Notes: generated by a model not told the origin, from the sequence alone. 19,317 bases of DNA from an uncultured bacterium (GCA_964534375.1 CAZHPN010000122.1:1-19317), one strand, 5' to 3'; positions 1-18,920 are shown, numbered from the stretch's first letter. Made by a program: numbers and translations.

Positions 1-1
1 T

Positions 2-478
2 TGGCACCGGTTCTACGACCCGGTCGCGGGGAGGTATTTGCAGGCGGATCCGATTTCGATTCACAGCCGTTTTCCGAACATCTCTCACCTGATTCCTGCA
101 TACGTGTACGGCACAAACCGTCCATTGAACGCTTTTGATTTCACAGGTTACGATCCGCTCGAGACTGCGAGAGACTTAAAAGAAAAATCAGACCAAGTCG
201 GCGGCTTACTTAATAACGGCGATGCCTGCACCGCGTGTCACGACAAATGCAAGGGCGACCAGGACGCATGCGACGCGAGTTGTGCTAAGAACGAAGACGC
301 TTGCTGGAAAGAAAGCCCCGACAAAGGTCCCCTTCATTGCTATTATGATGCCCTGAAATGCAACGACGCGTGCAACTACTTGGGGCATCCCTGCAACGTG
401 TTTATCAAGTCGATTCTTAATTTCTACATGGATTTCCTTCCGCACCACATGGGCGATGTTCTAAAGCCGGGCGACTAG
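2..478 (+). CDS. RHS repeat-associated core C-terminus with Cys-rich variable tip (5' truncated by window edge)
   Basis: Frame 2 is open from base 2: WHRFYDPVAGRYLQADP...AYVYGTNRPLNAFDFTG, matching the end of the RHS core (YDPxxGRYxxxDP...PxxxxDxxG). A ~110-aa tip with 10 Cys follows. Confidence 0.88.
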   Translation, partial: WHRFYDPVAGRYLQADPISIHSRFPNISHLIPAYVYGTNRPLNAFDFTGYDPLETARDLKEKSDQVGGLLNNGDACTACHDKCKGDQDACDASCAKNEDACWKESPDKGPLHCYYDALKCNDACNYLGHPCNVFIKSILNFYMDFLPHHMGDVLKPGD

Positions 479-508
479 AACTGAAACGGCGGCGTTCACG
501 GGGATTGA

Positions 509-1960
509 ATGAGAGTCCGAAGCACAATTAGAATCATTGTCGTCTTGCTGGGGCTTGTCGCGTTGCTGGCGTTGCCGCACGCCTTCTTGGCTCTCGTTTT
601 TTACAGTTTCCATCCGGGCGGCAATCTCGACATGCCGATTTGGACCGGGGGTCTCTTCCGGCTTCACGAGCTTCATGGAATCTCTTGGGAGTTTTTCGCA
701 TGCGTCATAATATTATTGCGACTGGCCGTCCGCGGAAAAAAAGATCCGTGGATTCTGCGGATGCTTCTTATTTGCTATTGTTCCTTGTTTGGATTGGGCG
801 CGATTCTTGAATTCCGAGGTTTCGACATCGGCCGAGTCCTTTTCCAGATCCTTCTACTGCTGGAATTGATCAGCTTTCTATTAACATGCGCCGGCGGGTA
901 CCTCTTTCTAAAGAAAGCCTTTGCTGCGGAAAAACAGACTCCGGCGGATATCACGCCGGTCGACGGCGCACGGGGCTCCGGGGCGACGTGGTCGTATGTA
1001 AGGGCTTTGGGATTTGTACTTCTCGTTGTCCCCGCCGTTTCGACAGGCATGTATACGGCCGCTCGCTTCGCGATAGCCGAACTTTATGACCGGTCTCGCG
1101 GAGCAGTTGACATGCCGGAGATGGTGAGAGTTCCGAGCGGAAGTTTCATGATGGGTTGTTCGCCGGGCGACGCGAATTGTTACGAGATGGGCCGCGACTC
1201 CGGCGGCCCCCACTGCAACACCGCCTCATGCGTAAATGCCCTCCGTTCAATGAAGCGAAGGGGCCAGGTGATTCATAGGATCGGCTGGTGGATGGAATTC
1301 ACTCCTGAAGAACCCGCCCATTGGGTGACAGTGAATGGATTTTGGATGGATACGATTCCGGTCACGCAGGCGCAATACAAAAAAGTAATGGGGAAAAACC
1401 CGAGCCAGTTTAAGGGTCGGGGTCGCCCGGTTGACGAAGTCGACTGGGAGGACGCCCGCGACTACTGCCAAAAGGTGGGAAAACGCTTGCCCACGGAAGC
1501 GGAGTGGGAATATGCGGCGCGCGGCGGCACAACCGGAGCCCGTTACGGCGAATTGAGTGCCATTGCGTGGTATGGAAAGACGGTCGATCGAACGGGCACG
1601 CATCCGGTTGCGCAGAAACAGCCGAATGCCTTTGGCCTTTACGACATGCTCGGAAATGTAAGGGAATGGTGCGCGGATTGGTACGCCCCGCGGTATTACG
1701 AGGAATCGCCCTCGGATAATCCTCAAGGACCGCCGCCGGCCCTTGCGCCAGGCGACAAGAATTTCGGCGACGGCCACGTGGTGCGCGGCGCCGCGTTTGA
1801 CGACGTGCCCGAGGATGTCCGGGTTTCGCGGCGAGCACAAAAGGGTGCATCGTTCATCGGTTTCCGTTGCGTGCGTGACATTTCCGACGCCAAGTCGGAG
1901 CCACCGGCAGCCGCGACGCCGACGCCCTCGCCCGAGCCGACTCCGGCCGGGCCAGAATAA
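509..1960 (+). CDS. Multi-pass membrane protein with C-terminal FGE-sulfatase (SUMF1/CLec-fold) domain
   Basis: About 5 hydrophobic segments in aa 1-190. FGE motifs MVRVPSGSFMMG, VTQAQY, RLPTEAEWEYAARGG, PNAFGLYDMLGNVREWCADWY, IGFRCVR. Pro/Thr-rich tail. Confidence 0.92.
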   Translation: MRVRSTIRIIVVLLGLVALLALPHAFLALVFYSFHPGGNLDMPIWTGGLFRLHELHGISWEFFACVIILLRLAVRGKKDPWILRMLLICYCSLFGLGAILEFRGFDIGRVLFQILLLLELISFLLTCAGGYLFLKKAFAAEKQTPADITPVDGARGSGATWSYVRALGFVLLVVPAVSTGMYTAARFAIAELYDRSRGAVDMPEMVRVPSGSFMMGCSPGDANCYEMGRDSGGPHCNTASCVNALRSMKRRGQVIHRIGWWMEFTPEEPAHWVTVNGFWMDTIPVTQAQYKKVMGKNPSQFKGRGRPVDEVDWEDARDYCQKVGKRLPTEAEWEYAARGGTTGARYGELSAIAWYGKTVDRTGTHPVAQKQPNAFGLYDMLGNVREWCADWYAPRYYEESPSDNPQGPPPALAPGDKNFGDGHVVRGAAFDDVPEDVRVSRRAQKGASFIGFRCVRDISDAKSEPPAAATPTPSPEPTPAGPE

Positions 1961-2099
1961 GGTGGGCGCCAGCCGCAAGCCGTGCTTCGCCGGCGACCGG
2001 AACTTTAAAGACAGAGGCCACAGAGAGGGAGAACAGAGAGCACAGAGGGCGCAACGGCGCGCATCCGTGGCGCGCGATCACGCGCCAAGAATGCGCGTC
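1921..2099 (+). repeat. Direct repeat copy 1 (~180 bp; copy 2 at ~5278-5456)
   Basis: 1962-2025 is identical to 5319-5382 (64 bp) and the flanks are clearly similar. It includes the PEPTPA-coding tail and stop codon. Confidence 0.9.
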
Positions 2100-2153
2100 A
2101 ACTCTGTGCCCCCTGTGTCTGTGGCTTTCTCTGTGCCCTCTGTGTTTAGAATT
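2001..2153. repeat. MITE-like long inverted repeat with CACAGAG-type arms and an inner GC hairpin
   Basis: Left arm aactttaaagacagaggccacagaga versus reverse complement of the right arm aattctaaacacagagggcacagaga. Inner stem gcgcat..tggcgcg/cgcgcca..atgcgc. Confidence 0.75.
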
Positions 2154-2157
2154 CACC

Positions 2158-2913
2158 TTGCCGATGTCCGGTTGCTTGATCCTGCCGCGCTGGCGGCGGT
2201 ATGATGCGCGCGGCAAAATCCGGCTGACGGTGGTGGCGGGCATCACGGTCGTAACGACCGTTGGCTTGGGGGCCTTCGCCGGCCGTTCGTGGGGAGGGGT
2301 ACTCGTGCAGCCGACGTACACGCCGTATTGGGTACACACCGACAACCTCGGCTCGCCCATCGCGATGACGAACGCGAGCGGCAGCGTCGTTTGGCAAACC
2401 TGGTACGCGCCCTTCGGCGAGACCGCCGACCTCAATGACGATCCCGGCAATACCGGCACGCATGTGACGATGAACATTCGGCGGCCGGGGCAGTACTTTG
2501 ACCAGGAGACCGGGTTGTATTACAATTGGCGCCGGTTCTACGACCCGGTTGCGGGGAGGTATTTGCAGGCGGATCCGCTTTCCAACGATGATGGATCGCT
2601 GCGCGCGTTCCGCGTGGTTCGCCCCTACCAATATGTCGGAAATCAACCGCTGAATAAAGTTGATTTGACGGGCAGGGGACACTGTCTCGACGCTTGTTTT
2701 CACCGCTGCGACGGCGCGTGGTTCACCTCTATGGAGGGGTGTTGCAAGGACCCCGGTTCCGGTCAATGCCACTTGGAACGCGATCGTTGGATATGCGAAG
2801 CGTATTGCGACACTCACCGGGGTGTCTGCGATACCATGTGCGGCGTCATGTGCACCCTCGTAGAGATATTGGGGGATATGGCCGATCCTCTTCACTCCAC
2901 CGGGGGCGAATGA
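2158..2913 (+). CDS. Orphan RHS core fragment with Cys-rich variable tip (start uncertain)
   Basis: YWVHTDNLGSPIAMTNASGSVVW..YAPFGE..RRPGQYFDQETGLYYNWRRFYDPVAGRYLQADP..YQYVGNQPLNKVDLTG, then a ~80-aa tip with 11 Cys. 2526-2577 matches 1-52 at 50/52 nt. Confidence 0.9.
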   Translation: MPMSGCLILPRWRRYDARGKIRLTVVAGITVVTTVGLGAFAGRSWGGVLVQPTYTPYWVHTDNLGSPIAMTNASGSVVWQTWYAPFGETADLNDDPGNTGTHVTMNIRRPGQYFDQETGLYYNWRRFYDPVAGRYLQADPLSNDDGSLRAFRVVRPYQYVGNQPLNKVDLTGRGHCLDACFHRCDGAWFTSMEGCCKDPGSGQCHLERDRWICEAYCDTHRGVCDTMCGVMCTLVEILGDMADPLHSTGGE

Positions 2914-2969
2914 GAAAGGCTCAAGGGCTCATTGATGGACTTTCGAAGGTCTTCGGTCGGGGGGACGTG

Positions 2970-5129
2970 ATGCTGATTCGATTTACGCTGCGGTCCGTTG
3001 GCGTCGTGGCGGCGCTCATCGCGTTGGCCGTTTTTCCGCACTCAAGATTGGCAATGGACTGCTGGCATTTTTATTCTGGTAATGATTTCATTGAACAGTT
3101 GCTCGGATACAGCGGGTTTTGGGGAGACGCGTTGTGGTGCGCGCTGATCCTATTGCGGCTGGCGGTGCGCGGAACGAAGGATCCGTGGAGCGTGCGGGGG
3201 CCCTTCTTGTCGTACGCCCTATTGTTCGGCATATGTGCGACTTTCAATCTTTGGAACATTTTTATCGATCGGACGGCGTTTTTGGCGCTTGTGTCGTTGG
3301 TGGCGATCAGTTTTCTCCTTACTTGCGCCGCCGGGTTTAGTTATTTGGCGAAATCATCCGCCGCCGAAAGACAACGCCAAACCGGCATTGCGATCGGCGA
3401 CAAAGCCGCGGTCTCGCCAGCCGGCCTGTCGCATTTGAGAGCGCTGGGGTTTCTTCTCGTCGCACTTCCGATCGTTTCATTCGGCCTGGAGGCTGCCGTC
3501 GCCGCGGCGATCACTAAATTGGATGATCGATTACCGGAGGCGATGACCCGACCGGAAATGGTAAAAATTTCCGGCGGCGGTTTTATGATGGGGTGTTCGC
3601 CCGGGGACATCGATTGCGGCGAACTTGGAAGCGATCTGCGCAGCCCTCGCTTTTCGGATTCTGTCTCCCGCCATTTGGTTCGGGAGGCCGAAGAAACGAG
3701 ACATCCAAACGGGTGGTGGTTGATTCTTGGCGCCGAGGAACCCGCCCATTACGTGACGGTGAACAGTTTTTGGATGGACACAGCGCCAGTCACACAGGAG
3801 CAATTTGAGCGGGTGATCGGCAGGAATCCAAGCAGGTTCAAGGGCCGGAGTCGTCCCGTCGAGAGCGTGGATTGGCCGGATGCGCGAAACTACTGCGAGA
3901 TGGTAGGAAAACGGCTGCCAACAGAGGCCGAATGGGAGTACGCCGCGCGGGGCGGCACAGCGGGCCCTCGCTATGGAAAAATCGACGACATCGCTTGGTA
4001 CGGGCCGACGATGGGGCGCTGGGGAACTCACCCGGTGGCGAAAAAACAGCCGAATGCCTATGGCCTTTACGATATGCTGGGAAACGTCAAGGAATGGTGC
4101 GCCGATTGGTGGGACGACAAATATTACCAACGCTCCCCCTCTGACAACCCGCAAGGCCCGGAACGACCAAGTTTTATTCGGAAACATATGTATCGCGGCG
4201 CTGCGTGCAACGAACCGCGTGAACGCGTCCGTGCGTCGCGGCGCAATTTCTTCAACGACCAACTTATCGGTTTTCGTTGCGCCCGCGACGATTCGAACGG
4301 CGCTGTGATGGTCGGCCGTAAGGCGGCGCCTGGTAAGGGAGAAGAAAGTGCGCCGGTCGCGATCAAGATCGTGGAAATTCCGGCGGGCAATTTTCAAATG
4401 GGCTCTCCGCTGGAGGAGCCGGAACGGCGGCAAGGAGAGATCCAACATGCAGTTACGATCAGCAGACGCTTTTTTATTAGCGCGACAGAAATCACGCAGG
4501 GACAATGGACGAGCGTGATGGGCATTAATCCGAGCGAATATCGCGAGTGCGGGGAGAACTGCCCGGTGGACCGGGTGTCCTGGAATGACGCGGTTGAATT
4601 TTGCAACCGGCTATCCGACCGCGAAGGCTTGTCGCGTTGTTACAGCGGAACGGCCAAATCGATCGTTTGGGATCGATCATGCGCCGGTTACCGCCTGCCC
4701 ACGGAGGCGGAGTGGGAATACGCGGCGCGGGCCGGGACTACGACCCATTTCAACACGGGCGATTGCCTTCCCGAGGACCAAGCGAATTATCTTGCTTCTT
4801 TTCCGGCGGCGCACTGCCCGAAGGGCAACCGCGAGCGTCCCGACGGTCCCGTGCCGGTGGCCAGTTATCCACCAAATGCTTGGGGGCTGTTCGACATGCA
4901 CGGCAATGTCGAGGAATGGGTTTGGGATTGGTGGGGCAAATACCCTTCAGGAGCGACGACGGATCCTACAGGCCCGCCGAATGGTCGGCTCGGCGGGGGG
5001 CTCAAGGGGATTCGAGGCGGCAGCGATGAAACTGGCGCCGACCATTGCCGTTCGGCAAATCGTTACGGCAACGCTCCCGAAACCCGACGTTCGGATCTTG
5101 GTTTCCGTATAGTAAAATCAGTTCCGTAG
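2970..5129 (+). CDS. Multi-pass membrane protein with two tandem FGE-sulfatase (CLec-fold) domains; paralog of 509-1960
   Basis: N-terminus MLIRFTLRSVGVVAALIALAVFPH aligns with MRVRSTIRIIVVLLGLVALLALPH, and LLRLAVRGxKDPW is shared. Two sets of RLPTEAEWEYAAR / GLxDMxGNVxEW / GFR. An alternative ATG at 2910 overlaps the RHS stop (ATGA). Confidence 0.92.
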   Translation: MLIRFTLRSVGVVAALIALAVFPHSRLAMDCWHFYSGNDFIEQLLGYSGFWGDALWCALILLRLAVRGTKDPWSVRGPFLSYALLFGICATFNLWNIFIDRTAFLALVSLVAISFLLTCAAGFSYLAKSSAAERQRQTGIAIGDKAAVSPAGLSHLRALGFLLVALPIVSFGLEAAVAAAITKLDDRLPEAMTRPEMVKISGGGFMMGCSPGDIDCGELGSDLRSPRFSDSVSRHLVREAEETRHPNGWWLILGAEEPAHYVTVNSFWMDTAPVTQEQFERVIGRNPSRFKGRSRPVESVDWPDARNYCEMVGKRLPTEAEWEYAARGGTAGPRYGKIDDIAWYGPTMGRWGTHPVAKKQPNAYGLYDMLGNVKEWCADWWDDKYYQRSPSDNPQGPERPSFIRKHMYRGAACNEPRERVRASRRNFFNDQLIGFRCARDDSNGAVMVGRKAAPGKGEESAPVAIKIVEIPAGNFQMGSPLEEPERRQGEIQHAVTISRRFFISATEITQGQWTSVMGINPSEYRECGENCPVDRVSWNDAVEFCNRLSDREGLSRCYSGTAKSIVWDRSCAGYRLPTEAEWEYAARAGTTTHFNTGDCLPEDQANYLASFPAAHCPKGNRERPDGPVPVASYPPNAWGLFDMHGNVEEWVWDWWGKYPSGATTDPTGPPNGRLGGGLKGIRGGSDETGADHCRSANRYGNAPETRRSDLGFRIVKSVP

Positions 5130-5277
5130 AACGCATGCGGCCTAGAATCGCTCCAAATCCATCGCGGCGAGCTTGACCGGGCCGTCTTTGCAGGGCGAGA
5201 CAATTGGGCGTCGTTATTTTTTCGCCCGCGGCGAAAAACGAGACGGTTTTTGTGGCAGGCCGTAGCGCTGCGGCGCC

Positions 5278-5456
5278 GGCGCCCACGCCCGAGCCGACTC
5301 CGGCCGAGACGAAATAAAGTGGGCGCCAGCCGCAAGCCGTGCTTCGCCGGCGACCGGAACTTTAAAGACAGAGGCCACAGAGGGGAAGCACGGAGAGCAC
5401 AGGGGGCGCAGCGGCCCGCATTCGGGGCGCGCGATCGCGCGCCCCGAATGCGCGTC
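5278..5456 (+). repeat. Direct repeat copy 2, with a perfect 36-bp palindrome (5417-5452); right CACAGAG arm missing
   Basis: Aligns with 1921-2099. cgcattcggggcgcgcga|tcgcgcgccccgaatgcg is self-complementary. Confidence 0.9.
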
Positions 5457-8532: not shown

Positions 8533-9507
8533 ATGAAAGACCGCCCGCGTTTCTGCCGTTTCCTGCCGCTGCTCGTCCTGCTCGCCGCGCTGGTCGCCTG
8601 CGGCCACAGTCGCGCTCCGAGCGCGGCGGATGACGATACGTCGCCCGTCGACGACGACGCCAGTCCCGTGTGGTCGGCGATGACGAGCGGGACGACGGCC
8701 TATCTGTACAGCGTTTGGGGCGGCTCGCCCTCGGACGTGTTCGCCGTGGGCGACGCCGGCGCGATCCTGCACTACGACGGCTCCTCGTGGTCGGCGATGG
8801 CGAGCGGGACGACGCTGGCGCTGCGCGGCGTTTGGGAAAGCGCCGCCACAGACGCGTTCGCCGTGGGCGACGCCGGCACGATTCTGCAATACGACGGCGC
8901 CGCATGGACGCCGATGACCAGCCCTACGTCGGAGGCGTTTTACGGCGTCTGGGGCAGCGCCGCCGCCAACGTTTTCGCCGTGGGCGACGCGGGATCGATC
9001 GTGCGCTACCGGGGCGACGCCTGGTCGGTCATGAAGTCGCGGACCACGAATTTTCTGACCGGGATTGGGGGCGTTTCGGCGCTCGACGTGTTCGCCGTGG
9101 GCGACGAGGCGACAATCATGCACTTCGGCGGCTTTTTGTGGGAGGGGATGACGACCAACGCCACGGGGCCGCTGTCCGGCATCTGGGGCAGCTCGCCCAC
9201 GGATTTGTTCGCCGTCGGCTACGCCGGCATGATCCTGCAATACGTTTCCGCGTGGGCGCCGATGACGAGCGGGACGAAGAGCTATCTCTCCGGGGTTTGG
9301 GGAAGCTCCGCGTCGGACGTGTTTGCCGCGGGCTATTTCGGCACGATCTTGCACTATGACGGCTCGTCGTGGTCGGCGATGCCAACGGGGACGACCGATT
9401 CGTTGTCCGCCATCTGGGGCGCCTCGGCCACGGACGTGTTCGCCGTCGGCTGGGGCGGCGCGATTCTGCATTACGGCGGAGCCGCGTCAGTGAACAGTGA
9501 ACAGTGA
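8533..9507 (+). CDS. Lipoprotein with seven ~40-aa WG-containing repeats (beta-propeller)
   Basis: Signal peptide with LVAC lipobox and DDDTSPVDDD linker. Seven repeats of VWGSSxxDVFAVGxxGxILHYDGxxWxxMxSGT. Confidence 0.88.
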   Translation: MKDRPRFCRFLPLLVLLAALVACGHSRAPSAADDDTSPVDDDASPVWSAMTSGTTAYLYSVWGGSPSDVFAVGDAGAILHYDGSSWSAMASGTTLALRGVWESAATDAFAVGDAGTILQYDGAAWTPMTSPTSEAFYGVWGSAAANVFAVGDAGSIVRYRGDAWSVMKSRTTNFLTGIGGVSALDVFAVGDEATIMHFGGFLWEGMTTNATGPLSGIWGSSPTDLFAVGYAGMILQYVSAWAPMTSGTKSYLSGVWGSSASDVFAAGYFGTILHYDGSSWSAMPTGTTDSLSAIWGASATDVFAVGWGGAILHYGGAASVNSEQ

Positions 9508-9556
9508 ACAACGAACAGTGAACAGCGAGCAGCGAACAGCGAACAGCGAACAGTGG
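9488..9556 (+). repeat. Heptamer tandem array (CAGYGAA) x ~10
   Basis: cagtgaa cagtgaa cagtgaa caacgaa cagtgaa cagcgag cagcgaa cagcgaa cagcgaa cagtgg. Confidence 0.92.
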
Positions 9557-9596
9557 CCAAAGTCTGGCGGGAAGGGTGACAGGCAACCCACGCGTC

Positions 9597-10973: not shown

Positions 10974-12209
10974 GTGTTGTTGTGCGGCGCGATGCCGCCC
11001 GCGGCGGCGCACGCCGGTCTGGGCACGATTCCGTATATGTATGGTTTCGGCGCGCGCGGCGCGGCGCTGGGCCAGGCGTACACGGCCTTGCCGGACGACG
11101 CCTCGACCGCGTTTTTCAACCCGGCGGCGATGGCGGCGATGGCCGAATCGCAGATCGCCTTGAGCTATCTGTACGCGCGGCCGGAATTCCAAGGCGGGCC
11201 GGTCGGCGACCTGCGGCGGTTCCGCGAAGCGAACAACCCATTCGAATTCAACCTGGCGCAGAAGCTTAACAAGTTGTTCAAGACGGACTGGGACCTCGCG
11301 CTCGGCGTCGCCCTGGCGCTCGACGACGGGGGCTGCGCGTTCATTCGTTTCGCGGATTCGGCGAACCGCTACGGCACGTTTTATCGCTACGGCCCGGCCT
11401 CCTTCACCTTGAGCAACGCGCTCGGCTGGCGGATCCAGCCGTGGATGTACATGGGCGCTGGCGTGCTGACGATGCTGCATTCGGAGTCGACGTCGGTCGC
11501 CCAAACCGACCTCAACGGTCATACGGCGCACCAGAACATCACCCTGAACGCCAACGTCGCGCTCGCGCCGATCGCCTCGTTGTTTTTCCGCACCGGCCCG
11601 GCGGACCTCGGCGTCGCGTACCACGGCTCGGCCTGCGGCATCTTCGGCCCGATCAACGACAACACGGTCGTCACCGTCGGCGGCGCCACGCTCGCCGCGA
11701 TTCCGATGGTGCTCAAATACAAAGACACCTTTCTGCCGCAGCGCGTGAGCCTCGGCGTGTTTTGGCGCATCGCGCCCTGGGTGAGCGCCGCGGCGGACGG
11801 CGTGTGGTGGAACTGGGGCGCGTTCAACAAGGCGATCCGGCGCAACGACGAGCCGCGGCAGAACCTGGGCCTCGATTTTCACGACACGTACGTGCCGCAC
11901 CTGGGCGTGGAATTCACGCCCCTGCCCGGCTTCAATGTCCGCGCCGGCTACGGTTACGAGCAAACGCCCGTTTCCCAGGGCGGGTCGAGCGCCAACATGA
12001 TACTCGACAACTCGAAGCACATCGGCGGCCTCGGCCTGGGCTACACGCTGCGGGACTCCAGCGTCATGCGGTATCCGGTGAGCTTCGACGCGTCGTATTT
12101 CCTGCAATATCTCGTCAAACGCACCGCGGTCTCCACCGACGGCGTAAAATACGAGAGCTTCGGCGCGCTCAACGGCGTGATCGGCACGTTGACGCTTCGC
12201 TATCAGTGA
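10974..12209 (+). CDS. OmpP1/FadL/TodX family outer-membrane protein (start uncertain)
   Basis: AHA signal cleavage site, GARGAALGQAYTALPDDASTAFFNPAAM hatch motif, LRAGY-like VRAGYGYEQTPV, and a C-terminal beta strand ending LRYQ. Confidence 0.85.
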   Translation: MLLCGAMPPAAAHAGLGTIPYMYGFGARGAALGQAYTALPDDASTAFFNPAAMAAMAESQIALSYLYARPEFQGGPVGDLRRFREANNPFEFNLAQKLNKLFKTDWDLALGVALALDDGGCAFIRFADSANRYGTFYRYGPASFTLSNALGWRIQPWMYMGAGVLTMLHSESTSVAQTDLNGHTAHQNITLNANVALAPIASLFFRTGPADLGVAYHGSACGIFGPINDNTVVTVGGATLAAIPMVLKYKDTFLPQRVSLGVFWRIAPWVSAAADGVWWNWGAFNKAIRRNDEPRQNLGLDFHDTYVPHLGVEFTPLPGFNVRAGYGYEQTPVSQGGSSANMILDNSKHIGGLGLGYTLRDSSVMRYPVSFDASYFLQYLVKRTAVSTDGVKYESFGALNGVIGTLTLRYQ

Positions 12210-12506
12210 ACAGCGAACAGCGAACAGTGAACAATGAACAGTGAACAGTGAACAGTGAGTGGGGCGACCCGTCCGCGCGCAGAGCGGGTCGCGCGGGTTC
12301 GCGGGCGGCGAGAGCATAGGTCCCATAGGTCCAATAGGTCCAATAGGCCCTATACGTCCCATGCGTCCCACAGGTCCCATAGCGACTGCCGATTTTCTCC
12401 GTAAACCACACAACGCAAAAACGTGTTTTTTCAATTGGCAATAATTCCTTCCTTGCACTTCTTCATTTTTCACTGTTCACTGTTCATTGTTCACTGTTCA
12501 CTGTTC
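12204..12506. repeat. Nested repeat element: (CAGYGAA)x8 ... inner 9-mer array (CATAGGTCC-like x7, 12315-12381) ... inverted (TTCACTG)x~6
   Basis: 12204-12259 and 12462-12506 are inverted heptamer arrays. A hairpin gcgacccg/cgggtcgc and the 9-mer array lie between them. Confidence 0.9.
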
Positions 12507-12518
12507 CGGAGCGGCCCG

Positions 12519-15544: not shown

Positions 15545-15955
15545 TCACGGCCGGATGATCCCTTTGACGGTCTGGAAGTTCTTCTCCGACGCGTCCTTGT
15601 ACTCTTTGATATGTTCCTTGACGCGTTCGATCAGCCGGTCGTGCTGTGTCTGGGTGATCGCTCTGTGCGCGTCGGTGACGATGCGCTGCTCGCCCTCGCC
15701 GTTCGGATCCCATTTGCCCTTCGCCTCGTTGCAGTGTTTGCAGGCGAGCGTGGCGTTGAACGGATCGGCGTAGCGGTTCCGGTATTTCCACGTGGGCAGG
15801 ATGTGTTCCGTGAAGCCGGTGAAATACGCGGTCGCGTTGGCCAGCATGTCGGCGCCGCAATAGGCGCACTTTCCCTCCGTCCTGATCCAGGCGGCGGCGC
15901 TGATCTTCGGCCATTTCAACTCCGCCAGTTTTTCGATCTTCTCCGTGTCTTTCAT
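15545..15955 (-). CDS. HNH endonuclease domain protein
   Basis: GKCAYCG...EHILP...N...ACKHCNEAKG; AAGGAGGA SD. Confidence 0.85.
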   Translation of the reverse strand: MKDTEKIEKLAELKWPKISAAAWIRTEGKCAYCGADMLANATAYFTGFTEHILPTWKYRNRYADPFNATLACKHCNEAKGKWDPNGEGEQRIVTDAHRAITQTQHDRLIERVKEHIKEYKDASEKNFQTVKGIIRP

Positions 15956-16848: not shown

Positions 16849-17469
16849 TTGACCGTCGTCCATCGCGTGAACGCCAAGATATTTTGGCCAGCGGCCATCG
16901 CGACGCTGCTGATCCTGGCGGGGGGGTTGTTTTCCTCGTGCGGATTCGGCGCCGGCGAACATCGTGTTGACGACGACACGTCGCCCGACGACGATGACAA
17001 CGACGATGCGAGCGCGCTGTGGACGGACGCGACATCGGGTCTGACGTGGCAGAACGGCGCAACTGTCGGGGCCGTCGCCTATGATTGGCAGGCGGCGGCC
17101 GGCTACTGCGCGGGCCTGAACTGGGGCGGCCTCACCGGTTGGCGACTGCCGACAATTTCCGAGCTTCGCAGTTTGATCCGCGGGTGCGCCGGCACGATTA
17201 CCGGCGGCTCTTGCGGCGTGACCGACGATTGTCTGAGTTCCCAAGCTTGTTGGAATGCGCTATGTTACGGCTGTTCCGAATCAGGTGGTTCCGGGTCGGG
17301 CGGCGCCTATTGGCCGCCGGAAATCTCAGGCGAGGCCGGCGCCCATGCGTATTGGTCGTCTTCGTCGCTGGCGGACTACGGCTATCTCGCGTGGAGCGTC
17401 GATTTCAGCGCCGCCGGCGTCGACGCGGTCGGCGTCGTCAGCGATCTCGGCGCGCGTTGCGTGCGCTAG
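16849..17469 (+). CDS. DUF1566 (Lcl_C) lipoprotein
   Basis: AGGGAGG SD, FSSC lipobox, DDDTSPDDDD linker, WTDATSGLTWQ, GWRLPTISELRSL, YWSSS, ARCVR. Confidence 0.9.
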   Translation: MTVVHRVNAKIFWPAAIATLLILAGGLFSSCGFGAGEHRVDDDTSPDDDDNDDASALWTDATSGLTWQNGATVGAVAYDWQAAAGYCAGLNWGGLTGWRLPTISELRSLIRGCAGTITGGSCGVTDDCLSSQACWNALCYGCSESGGSGSGGAYWPPEISGEAGAHAYWSSSSLADYGYLAWSVDFSAAGVDAVGVVSDLGARCVR

Positions 17470-17490
17470 CGGCAAGGGGATTTGAAGCCA

Positions 17491-18069
17491 ATGAAAACAA
17501 GCTCGCTGCTGTTGTTCGCGATTCTGGCCGCGGCGTTTGCCGCCTTGTTCTCCGCCGCCTGCGCCTCCCGCGGCGACGACGACGATTCGCCGGCCGCGGA
17601 CCTCGCCGCCGAAAGCGTCTGGACCGACCCGGCGTCGGGGCTCACGTGGCAGAACGGCGCGCCGGTCGGGGGCGACTCGCTATTGCCGGTGGAGGCGAAC
17701 ACCTACTGCACGGGCCTGATGTGGGACGGCCTCGGCGGCTGGCGTATGCCGACGATCTCGGAGCTGCGCAGCTTGCTGCGCGGCTGCGCCGCCACCGTGA
17801 CGGGCGGTTCCTGCGGCGTGACGGACACGTGTTTGAGCCCCTCCACCTGTTGGCTCGACGCTTGCAACGGCTGCTCCGCCTCCGGCGGGCCCGGGACGAA
17901 CGGCGCGTATTGGCCGCCGGAAATCCTGGGCAGCCTCGCCCTCGGCGGCGGGTATTGGTCCTCGTCGGCGGCGGCGGGCAGCGCGGCGCCGAACGGGTGG
18001 TCCATCGATTTCGCGACCGGCGCGGTCTATAGCGACGCCGTTTTCGCCTTCGTGCGTTGCGTGCGGTAA
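17491..18069 (+). CDS. DUF1566 (Lcl_C) lipoprotein
   Basis: SAAC lipobox, DDDDSP, WTDPASGLTWQ, GWRMPTISELRSL, YWSSS, VRCVR. Confidence 0.9.
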   Translation: MKTSSLLLFAILAAAFAALFSAACASRGDDDDSPAADLAAESVWTDPASGLTWQNGAPVGGDSLLPVEANTYCTGLMWDGLGGWRMPTISELRSLLRGCAATVTGGSCGVTDTCLSPSTCWLDACNGCSASGGPGTNGAYWPPEILGSLALGGGYWSSSAAAGSAAPNGWSIDFATGAVYSDAVFAFVRCVR

Positions 18070-18108: not shown

Positions 18109-18239
18109 TGCGAATGCGGCGGCGCCCGACATACAATCGGCGAACACTTTAGTAGATCTTGGTGAATCGCCTGGTTATTAAGAGCAATCAGGGCGATTTC
18201 GAAAGCCCTTGCGTCAACCGGCAAAGGAGAGAAAGAAGC

Positions 18240-18920
18240 ATGAACAAGAAACTCGTTGCGTTGGTGCTCGCGGCCTGCGCCGCGGCCCTGATTTTCGGCC
18301 TCTGGGCCTGCGCGAGCAAAAGCAGCAGCAGCAGTCCCGCGGCCGACGATGACGTCAGCCCGACCGATGACGACGCCAGCCCGACCGATGACGACACGAG
18401 CCCGACCGATGACGACACCAGCCCGACCGATGACGACGACAACGACGACGACGATGCGTCGCCGGGGGAGACGTGGACCGACCCCTCTACGCATTTGATG
18501 TGGGAAGTCAGCAAGAGCGGCGATCGCGATTTGACCAGCGCGCTGTCGTACTGCAACAGCCTTTCGGCAGGCGGCTTCGGCGATTGGCAATTGCCGACGA
18601 TCGACCAACTGCGGACGATCGTGACCGGCTGCGCGGACACAGAAACCAGCGGCGCCTGCGGCGTCACGGATTCCTGCACGAAAGAAACGTGCCACAACAG
18701 CTCGTGCGACGGCTGCAAACAATACGGCGGTCCTGGCGGAAACGGCTGCTACTTGCCGGCCGAGTTGGGCGGCGATTGCGCGGCGCCATATTGGTCCCAG
18801 ACGCCGGACGAGACCGATGCGCTCTACTTCTGGGCCGTCGATTACTCGTACGCCAGCGTCATTGAGCGCTCCGTGAAAAACGCCGCGACCAACGTCCGTT
18901 GCGTGCGCGCGGCGTCGTAG
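18240..18920 (+). CDS. DUF1566 (Lcl_C) lipoprotein with 21-bp SPTDDDx tandem repeats
   Basis: AAAGGAGA SD, LWAC lipobox, (SPTDDDx)4, WTDPSTHLMWE, DWQLPTIDQLRTI, YWSQT, VRCVR. Confidence 0.9.
   Translation: MNKKLVALVLAACAAALIFGLWACASKSSSSSPAADDDVSPTDDDASPTDDDTSPTDDDTSPTDDDDNDDDDASPGETWTDPSTHLMWEVSKSGDRDLTSALSYCNSLSAGGFGDWQLPTIDQLRTIVTGCADTETSGACGVTDSCTKETCHNSSCDGCKQYGGPGGNGCYLPAELGGDCAAPYWSQTPDETDALYFWAVDYSYASVIERSVKNAATNVRCVRAAS

Follow-up and report, generated by a model that had tools for sequence, protein, structure and literature searches.

Three Rhs cassettes pairing unrelated cysteine-rich tips with one family of membrane-anchored FGE/CLec proteins: a candidate Sec-exported toxin–immunity system in an uncultured bacterium

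The genome of an uncultured bacterium carries three Rhs cassettes of one build, in which near-identical homology arms enclose unrelated cysteine-rich tips and deeply diverged members of a single family of membrane proteins with FGE/CLec domains. We consider it probable that these cassettes belong to a Sec-exported Rhs toxin–immunity system in which cassettes can be swapped, and in which the membrane immunity protein has gained an FGE/CLec domain. The pairing of a tip with an FGE protein is known from this one organism and from these three cassettes.

Two of the cassettes lie in tandem at the start of the window, the whole 19,317-nucleotide stretch that was analysed, which is the complete contig C122. 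The window opens in the 3' end of Rhs module 1 (1..478, plus strand; open frame 2-478), with the core end at 2-148 and a 109-aa tip containing 10 cysteines at 146-475. After a gap of 30 bp follows partner 1 (509..1960, plus; 483 aa), a likely immunity protein with five predicted transmembrane helices (~509-1108), an FGE-sulfatase/CLec domain with a ~40-aa insert (1109-1885), and a Pro/Ala/Thr tail. The first copy of the 3' homology arm (1910..2099, plus) begins with tail codons of partner 1 and continues with a palindromic element. The orphan Rhs module 2 (2158..2913, plus) comprises the second half of an internal hydrophobic hairpin (2158-2300), the RHS/core region with both protease aspartates (2323-2673) and a 79-aa tip with 11 cysteines (2674-2910). 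Partner 2 (2970..5129, plus), a five-helix membrane domain with two FGE domains, starts either in an ATGA overlap with the tip gene (2910-2913; 739 aa from ATG 2910) or after a 56-bp gap (719 aa from ATG 2970), and the alignment of the paralogs favours ATG 2970. The second copy of the 3' arm (5267..5456, plus) holds tail codons with their stop at 5315-5317. An earlier note on this DNA had described the succession of core end, Cys-rich tip, multi-TM FGE gene and repeat as occurring twice, with tightly coupled partner genes; domain and repeat analysis confirmed the double occurrence, and all junction distances were reproduced. A third unit lies at the end of C35, with an unrelated tip (97 aa, 7 cysteines), a partner of the same family and a matching arm. 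The genome thus has three Rhs cores, each followed by a partner of one family and an arm, and a fourth partner copy, on C7, which stands back to back with an Ada-type gene and has no core, tip or arm. The assembly is backed by contigs of two sequencing runs, one of which may be the source sample, without differences across tip 1 and partner 1, and in one run the read depth over the core was about three times that of the flanks (23 versus 7.5-8). RNA runs covered the locus with scattered pieces of 150-200 bases at low depth, PADLOC gave no match, and promoter and terminator scans yielded nothing interpretable.

The rest of the window contains four lipoprotein-like genes with an Lcl C-terminal domain (PF07603; 6593-7552 on the minus strand, and 16849-17469, 17482-18069 and 18159-18920 on the plus strand), which form a second expanded lectin-fold family in the window. 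Intergenic runs of a 7-base repeat also occur, both direct and inverted (9473-9570, 12189-12272 and 12462-12516), as does a small HNH-like gene just under the Pfam cut-off (15545-15955, minus).

The history of the cassettes can be read from their arms. The 5' arm, made up of hairpin and core, is common to the three cassettes over 424-523 bp at 90-92% nucleotide identity, and the 3' arm over 190-251 bp at 80-89%. Fourfold sites are identical at 31/40-34/39 positions in the core (78-87%), versus 10/44-23/50 in the TM part and 18/57-40/85 in the FGE part of the partners (23-47%), where 32% is expected by chance. Young arms around near-saturated partner genes are the mark of recombinational cassette exchange. 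A plain segmental duplication of a chance Rhs–FGE neighbourhood would fit the occurrence in a single organism and the tandem position of two of the three cassettes, yet a duplication would age evenly, whereas here arms of 80-92% identity surround unrelated tips and near-saturated partners, and the third cassette is on another contig; we regard this explanation as highly improbable. With three different tips, one partner family in one slot and conserved arms around saturated cargo, the earlier preference for a polymorphic tip/partner system over such a duplication is borne out. The repeat of the earlier note is indeed present behind both units (190 bp, 89% identical), but it is no separate non-coding unit: it starts with the last codons of the partner, which encode the Pro/Ala/Thr tail, and continues with a palindromic element, dispersed through the genome, whose later part (to ~2150) recurs on many contigs. 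Rfam had no match for the 3' arm. In cassette 2, the tail codons lie stranded ~140 bp downstream of the partner 2 stop, a position that points to a later arrival of the second FGE domain.

The Rhs assignment is clear for modules 2 and 3, in which PF03527 and TIGR03696 score over their cut-offs (TIGR03696 in module 2, 68.7 bits). The cut module 1 reaches 30.8-33.6 bits against a cut-off of 32.5 for the TIGR03696 core end, and 59 bits where it is whole on L058, a longer contig of the same organism that is 100% identical over 9,545 bases. At 96-99% amino acid identity of the cores, the tips are unalignable, so that hypervariable tips sit on a conserved core: the alignment score of tips 1 and 2 was reached by 56/1000 shuffles, in agreement with the earlier note, and those of tips 1/3 and 2/3 by 807/1000 and 521/1000. 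Two core aspartates are found in all three modules. The aspartyl protease motif of Rhs proteins has been described as DPxG-x18-DPxG, with 23 residues between the aspartates in Tse5 (PMC10684867, accessible part of the text); in comparison, the motifs here are degenerate (DP followed by I or L without the G, and DxxG) and the spacer is ~7 residues longer, with 30 residues in module 1. Tip cleavage is a candidate activity.

Searches by family, homology and fold found no toxin family, homolog or fold for any of the three tips, and their proposed toxicity rests on the family context. The sole match to a tip among 11 candidate proteins of 237-756 aa was the protein itself, Atlas matches all remained under 0.9 and are leads only, and comparison with 102 tips from related loci gave no convincing match (best z 3.7, 3/300 shuffles, driven by cysteines). 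The low-confidence model of tip 1 (pLDDT 57) is helical, and a fold search with it returned Bcl-2-like and other helical bundles (best Z 6.8). As for the family context, a genome collection gave more than 660 matches to this Rhs family, of which we took the best 74 as further loci; one of these duplicates a locus of the class. By heuristic gene calls that include broken short tips, at least 6 cysteines occur in 28/91 complete tips and at least two TM segments in 32/91 next genes, and one tip passes the Pfam cut-off for prokaryotic phospholipase A2. Among relatives of the class, 15 cores of this Rhs family have a readable next gene, which encodes a small multi-TM protein in 10 cases, a lipoprotein or single-TM protein in 3, and a soluble protein in 2. 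Since Cys-rich tips and membrane partners are common elsewhere, they are ordinary for this Rhs family, and it is the FGE fusion that is the local novelty, in partners that are much larger (427-739 aa across the four paralogs) than the usual ones. In our view, the tips are probably antibacterial toxins, stapled by disulfides, whose site of action is outside the cytoplasm, and the five-helix FGE proteins probably serve in the inner membrane as the cognate immunity proteins. In two relatives, G014 (L042, L050) and G008 (L045), Rhs tips with 11-13 cysteines are each followed by a gene for 2-4 TM segments; the one tip scanned had no Pfam match, and these tips carry what we take to be an HExxH-like motif.

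The five helices of the partners are predicted from hydropathy and a low-confidence model (pLDDT 58). The loops after helices 2 and 4 carry basic residues, a charge distribution by which the FGE domain is predicted to lie outside the cytoplasm and to face the periplasm. The cytoplasmic part consists of short loops and has no signalling domain. A fold search with the low-confidence model of the membrane domain gave generic four-helix membrane bundles (best Z 10). In an Atlas structure search with a low-confidence model, matches stayed under TM 0.5. The number of FGE domains varies, with one in partner 1 and two in partner 2. PF03781 scores over its cut-off, and in alignments to 6MUJ and 2Q17 none of the four first FGE domains has the catalytic cysteine pair at the corresponding site, which supports, at the level of sequence, a non-catalytic FGE-type CLec domain rather than an active formylglycine-generating enzyme. 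Partners 1 and 2 share 43% amino acid identity in the TM part and 60% in the FGE part and are, as had been claimed, clear but diverged paralogs; over all partner pairs the values are 29-43% and 53-65%. In a tree that took in 26/73 FGE domains, the nearest neighbour of partner 2 is the C7 copy without a tip (98/93 support).

The best solved-structure relative of the partner FGE domain is TvpA (PDB 2Y3C, E 2e-27), a variable protein of a diversity-generating retroelement (DGR), and it is here that the partners could be read as receptors. In such non-toxic ligand/receptor pairs, the tips would be pheromone-like disulfide peptides, and the partners allele-specific membrane receptors for kin or self recognition. 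The small, Cys-laddered tips with their helical low-confidence model and without a match to any toxin family would suit this idea, as would the kinship to TvpA, and a private ~40-aa insert that is present in three of the four partners and differs in sequence in each (our list of insert lengths includes four regex artefacts). The segment equivalent to the TvpA variable region also differs in all four partners. However, this predicted binding segment shows no excess variation, with 0.35-0.48 identity at 0.66-0.68 core identity against a background of 0.40 +/- 0.09 in 31 other FGE paralogs of the genome, which counts against a special diversification; nor are the partners conserved in any relative. 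The short cytoplasmic loops without a signalling domain, the neighbouring genes, which encode a TauE exporter and a DUF4886 protein, and the phospholipase-type tips with ordinary small partners elsewhere in this Rhs family also speak against ligand/receptor pairs, which we consider improbable. The kin-recognition slant of the earlier note is therefore not sustained, in view of the missing signalling domain and of a predicted ligand-binding segment that has diverged no further than in the other FGE paralogs. Diversification of the partners by a DGR was rejected: among 76 FGE domain ends in this genome, which is 94% complete, none had a template repeat or an adenine-specific pair, the highest adenine share among 533 pairs tested for DGR mismatches was 0.44, and the only reverse transcriptase match is a fragment. 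This fragment is on C265 (C265:176-2222; L057), where the C-terminal half of a reverse transcriptase, scoring over the PF00078 cut-off, is encoded immediately behind an FGE-domain gene; no template repeat was found there. Its motif resembles, as we presume, those of DGR enzymes, and the locus is probably a decayed DGR.

In a further reading, the partner would be a constant passenger, or its five-helix part alone would matter, the FGE domain having been fused as the commonest extracytoplasmic module of this genome and taking no part in tip recognition. The genome has 79 FGE matches, compared with 14-60 in each of 16 relatives, and its FGE domains are spread over 68 reading frames with many N-terminal architectures, including at least 4 other multi-TM–FGE fusions. 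It agrees with a passenger role that the number of FGE domains differs between partners, that the FGE domain of the C35 partner falls outside the group of the other three in a free tree, although a single clade was not rejected (p-AU 0.35), and that in G005, a relative, the second gene behind each of two cassettes encodes an unrelated FGE lipoprotein. Against it stand the ~40-aa insert, which is private to the partner family, and the intact FGE domain in all four paralogs, which at 53-65% identity despite near-saturated synonymous sites must be under selection. We hold this reading to be rather unlikely.

The partner family is narrowly distributed. A profile of its membrane domain, searched against 1.84 billion representatives, found 3 proteins, all from the organism of the window, and among the best 120 of 7,118 matches, only the four partners of this organism covered more than 90% of partner 1. 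It is this profile search that carries the claim, as the scans of genome and metagenome collections used one 9-residue pattern that is weak alone. None of the 16 relatives had a match to the membrane domain, no FGE domain is encoded in the gene after any of their 26 Rhs cores, as far as the contigs reach, and none occurs in the 74 further Rhs loci. The generality of the pairing, as it had been proposed earlier, is thus not upheld, and the idea that homologs of the membrane domain always follow an Rhs core stands for three of the four copies, all in this organism, but not for the tip-less one on C7. FGE genes near the Rhs loci of relatives are limited to one upstream gene in G008 and the lipoprotein gene two genes behind both cassettes of G005 (L047:1794-2306 and L048:340-1272). 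An ancestral Rhs–FGE linkage by way of G005 was rejected, as this FGE domain belongs to a separate, well-supported lipoprotein clade, and its position is convergence or chance.

On L058, where module 1 can be read whole, it proved to be a C-terminal Rhs fragment of 432 aa that follows an unrelated gene, and both modules of the window are therefore orphans. Neither of them has a full-length Rhs before it. The 5' half of a long Rhs gene lies on C36 (C36:37598-40460; L059), with a signal-peptide-like start, a Cys-rich N-terminal region, a weak DUF6531 match and similarity to the Rhs of a relative. It ends at a 54-bp sequence that is shared with the ends of five contigs (C110, C124, C271, C301 and C346) and that looks like the end of an insertion sequence; the middle part of the gene is missing from the assembly, and we infer that the halves on C36 and C35 come from one long gene. 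In contigs of two runs, the shell region matches module 1 but has other sequence upstream, as is expected if a longer Rhs copy exists. The 94%-complete genome had no match to the type VI secretion (T6SS) markers VipB or VgrG.

Directly before the core, the Rhs proteins of the window organism, G015 and P0127, and with other sequence also of G005, contain a hairpin of two hydrophobic segments around a basic loop (L058:2580-2816, L040:3208-3460, L047:3-315 and P0127), whereas G010 has an Asp-rich linker ending in CGGC at this site. In the window organism, G015 and P0127, a cysteine precedes the first segment, which has Arg-Arg at its end, and the second closes with a small-x-Ala site that resembles the one of a signal peptide. 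The hairpin is present in none of 70 cores from a wider Rhs set, in which the same site can carry dockerin (L088, L092, L114), golvesin C (L089, L099) or thrombospondin-3 (TSP3; L115) domains; in other phyla, this position is a hotspot for the insertion of attachment domains. Together, this suggests an envelope-anchoring site. The succession of Cys, hydrophobic helix and Arg-Arg presumably resembles a MYXO-CTERM-like sorting signal, and NCBIfam gave no match of the insert fragments to curated sorting-signal models. At least 10 proteins of the genome end in an Asp-rich linker with GCGC (on C6, C20, C22, C32, C40, C49, C134, C232, C241 and C304), possibly a lineage-specific C-terminal sorting or lipidation motif. 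One could go further and imagine a T6SS-independent, membrane-processed Rhs capsule, whose shell would be split and anchored at the cell envelope by the Cys-helix-ArgArg element and the signal-peptide-like helix, and whose freed disulfide-laddered peptides would serve as an identity code of a non-lethal kind, exchanged in cassette form and read allele-specifically by membrane CLec receptors; we find this quite improbable.

Orphan modules with homology arms are a familiar feature of Rhs loci, and the cassettes of the window share it. Further common traits with described loci (Tse5/Tsi5, RhsA and Rhs1; PMC10684867, accessible part), for which tip release and recombination have been reported, are RHS and core domains, a pair of aspartates in the core ahead of a hypervariable tip, and a tightly coupled next gene. 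The present system differs by an N-terminal signal peptide and an internal hydrophobic hairpin just before the core, with no T6SS markers found, and by a partner of 427-739 aa from one family that is kept across unalignable tips. FGE-fold proteins have already been published as immunity proteins that bind a cognate effector: Tsi3 guards the T6SS effector Tse3, is usually encoded on the opposite strand, and ~98% of its carriers possess a T6SS, as far as the accessible part of the preprint describes (Lopez et al., 10.1101/2021.05.21.445229). Like Tsi3, the partners have an FGE domain without the catalytic cysteines, occur in several diverged copies per genome and are encoded beside a candidate effector; unlike it, they are co-oriented behind an Rhs tip and carry five fused TM helices, and their genome gave no VipB or VgrG match. 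By the T6SS criterion, they are not of the Tsi3 family, and their neighbour is an Rhs tip. With TvpA (PMC5006420, accessible part), they share the FGE-type CLec fold and a C-terminal variable-region equivalent that differs among partners, and they differ by the lack of a template repeat or adenine-specific pair, the sole reverse transcriptase match being on another contig. In the literature we searched, mostly openly accessible papers, no account of an Rhs tip paired with a TM–FGE gene was found; one source mentions, in its accessible part, a SUMF1 protein beside an Rhs cluster without an assigned role (10.1101/2023.03.17.533219). The earlier note had not recognised the system as a described one, and within this literature that holds for the pairing but not for FGE-fold immunity as such.

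In the toxin–immunity system that we propose, the long signal-peptide Rhs would be exported by Sec, not by a T6SS, and would fold around the tip, which the core aspartyl protease may then free. An orphan cassette could replace the expressed one by recombination between core arm and tail arm, and as these arms enclose both genes, tip and partner would move together. The partner, anchored in the inner membrane and exposing its FGE/CLec domain to the periplasm, would bind its own tip and so neutralise it. Its five-helix domain would stand in for the small membrane proteins that relatives use for immunity, and an FGE domain drawn from the large FGE family of the genome would provide, as in Tsi3, an additional surface for binding. 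The C7 copy without a tip would count as an orphan among the immunity genes. The insertion-sequence-like end that interrupts the long Rhs hints at a system that may be in decay. Several observations weigh against this proposal: the searches linked no tip to a toxin family, homolog or fold, one of the four partners has no tip, the partners are much larger than is usual in this Rhs family, and their predicted binding segment diverges at the pace of the other FGE paralogs. If this reading is true, immunity based on the FGE/CLec fold reaches beyond T6SS effectors into a Sec-exported Rhs system, and the three tips and four partners form a compact 3-by-4 matrix in which the ability of one scaffold to neutralise unrelated tips, and the domain that sets specificity, could be explored. 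The site just before the Rhs core, which hosts anchoring modules such as dockerin, golvesin or the membrane hairpin, appears to be a broader and so far little described feature of Rhs proteins.
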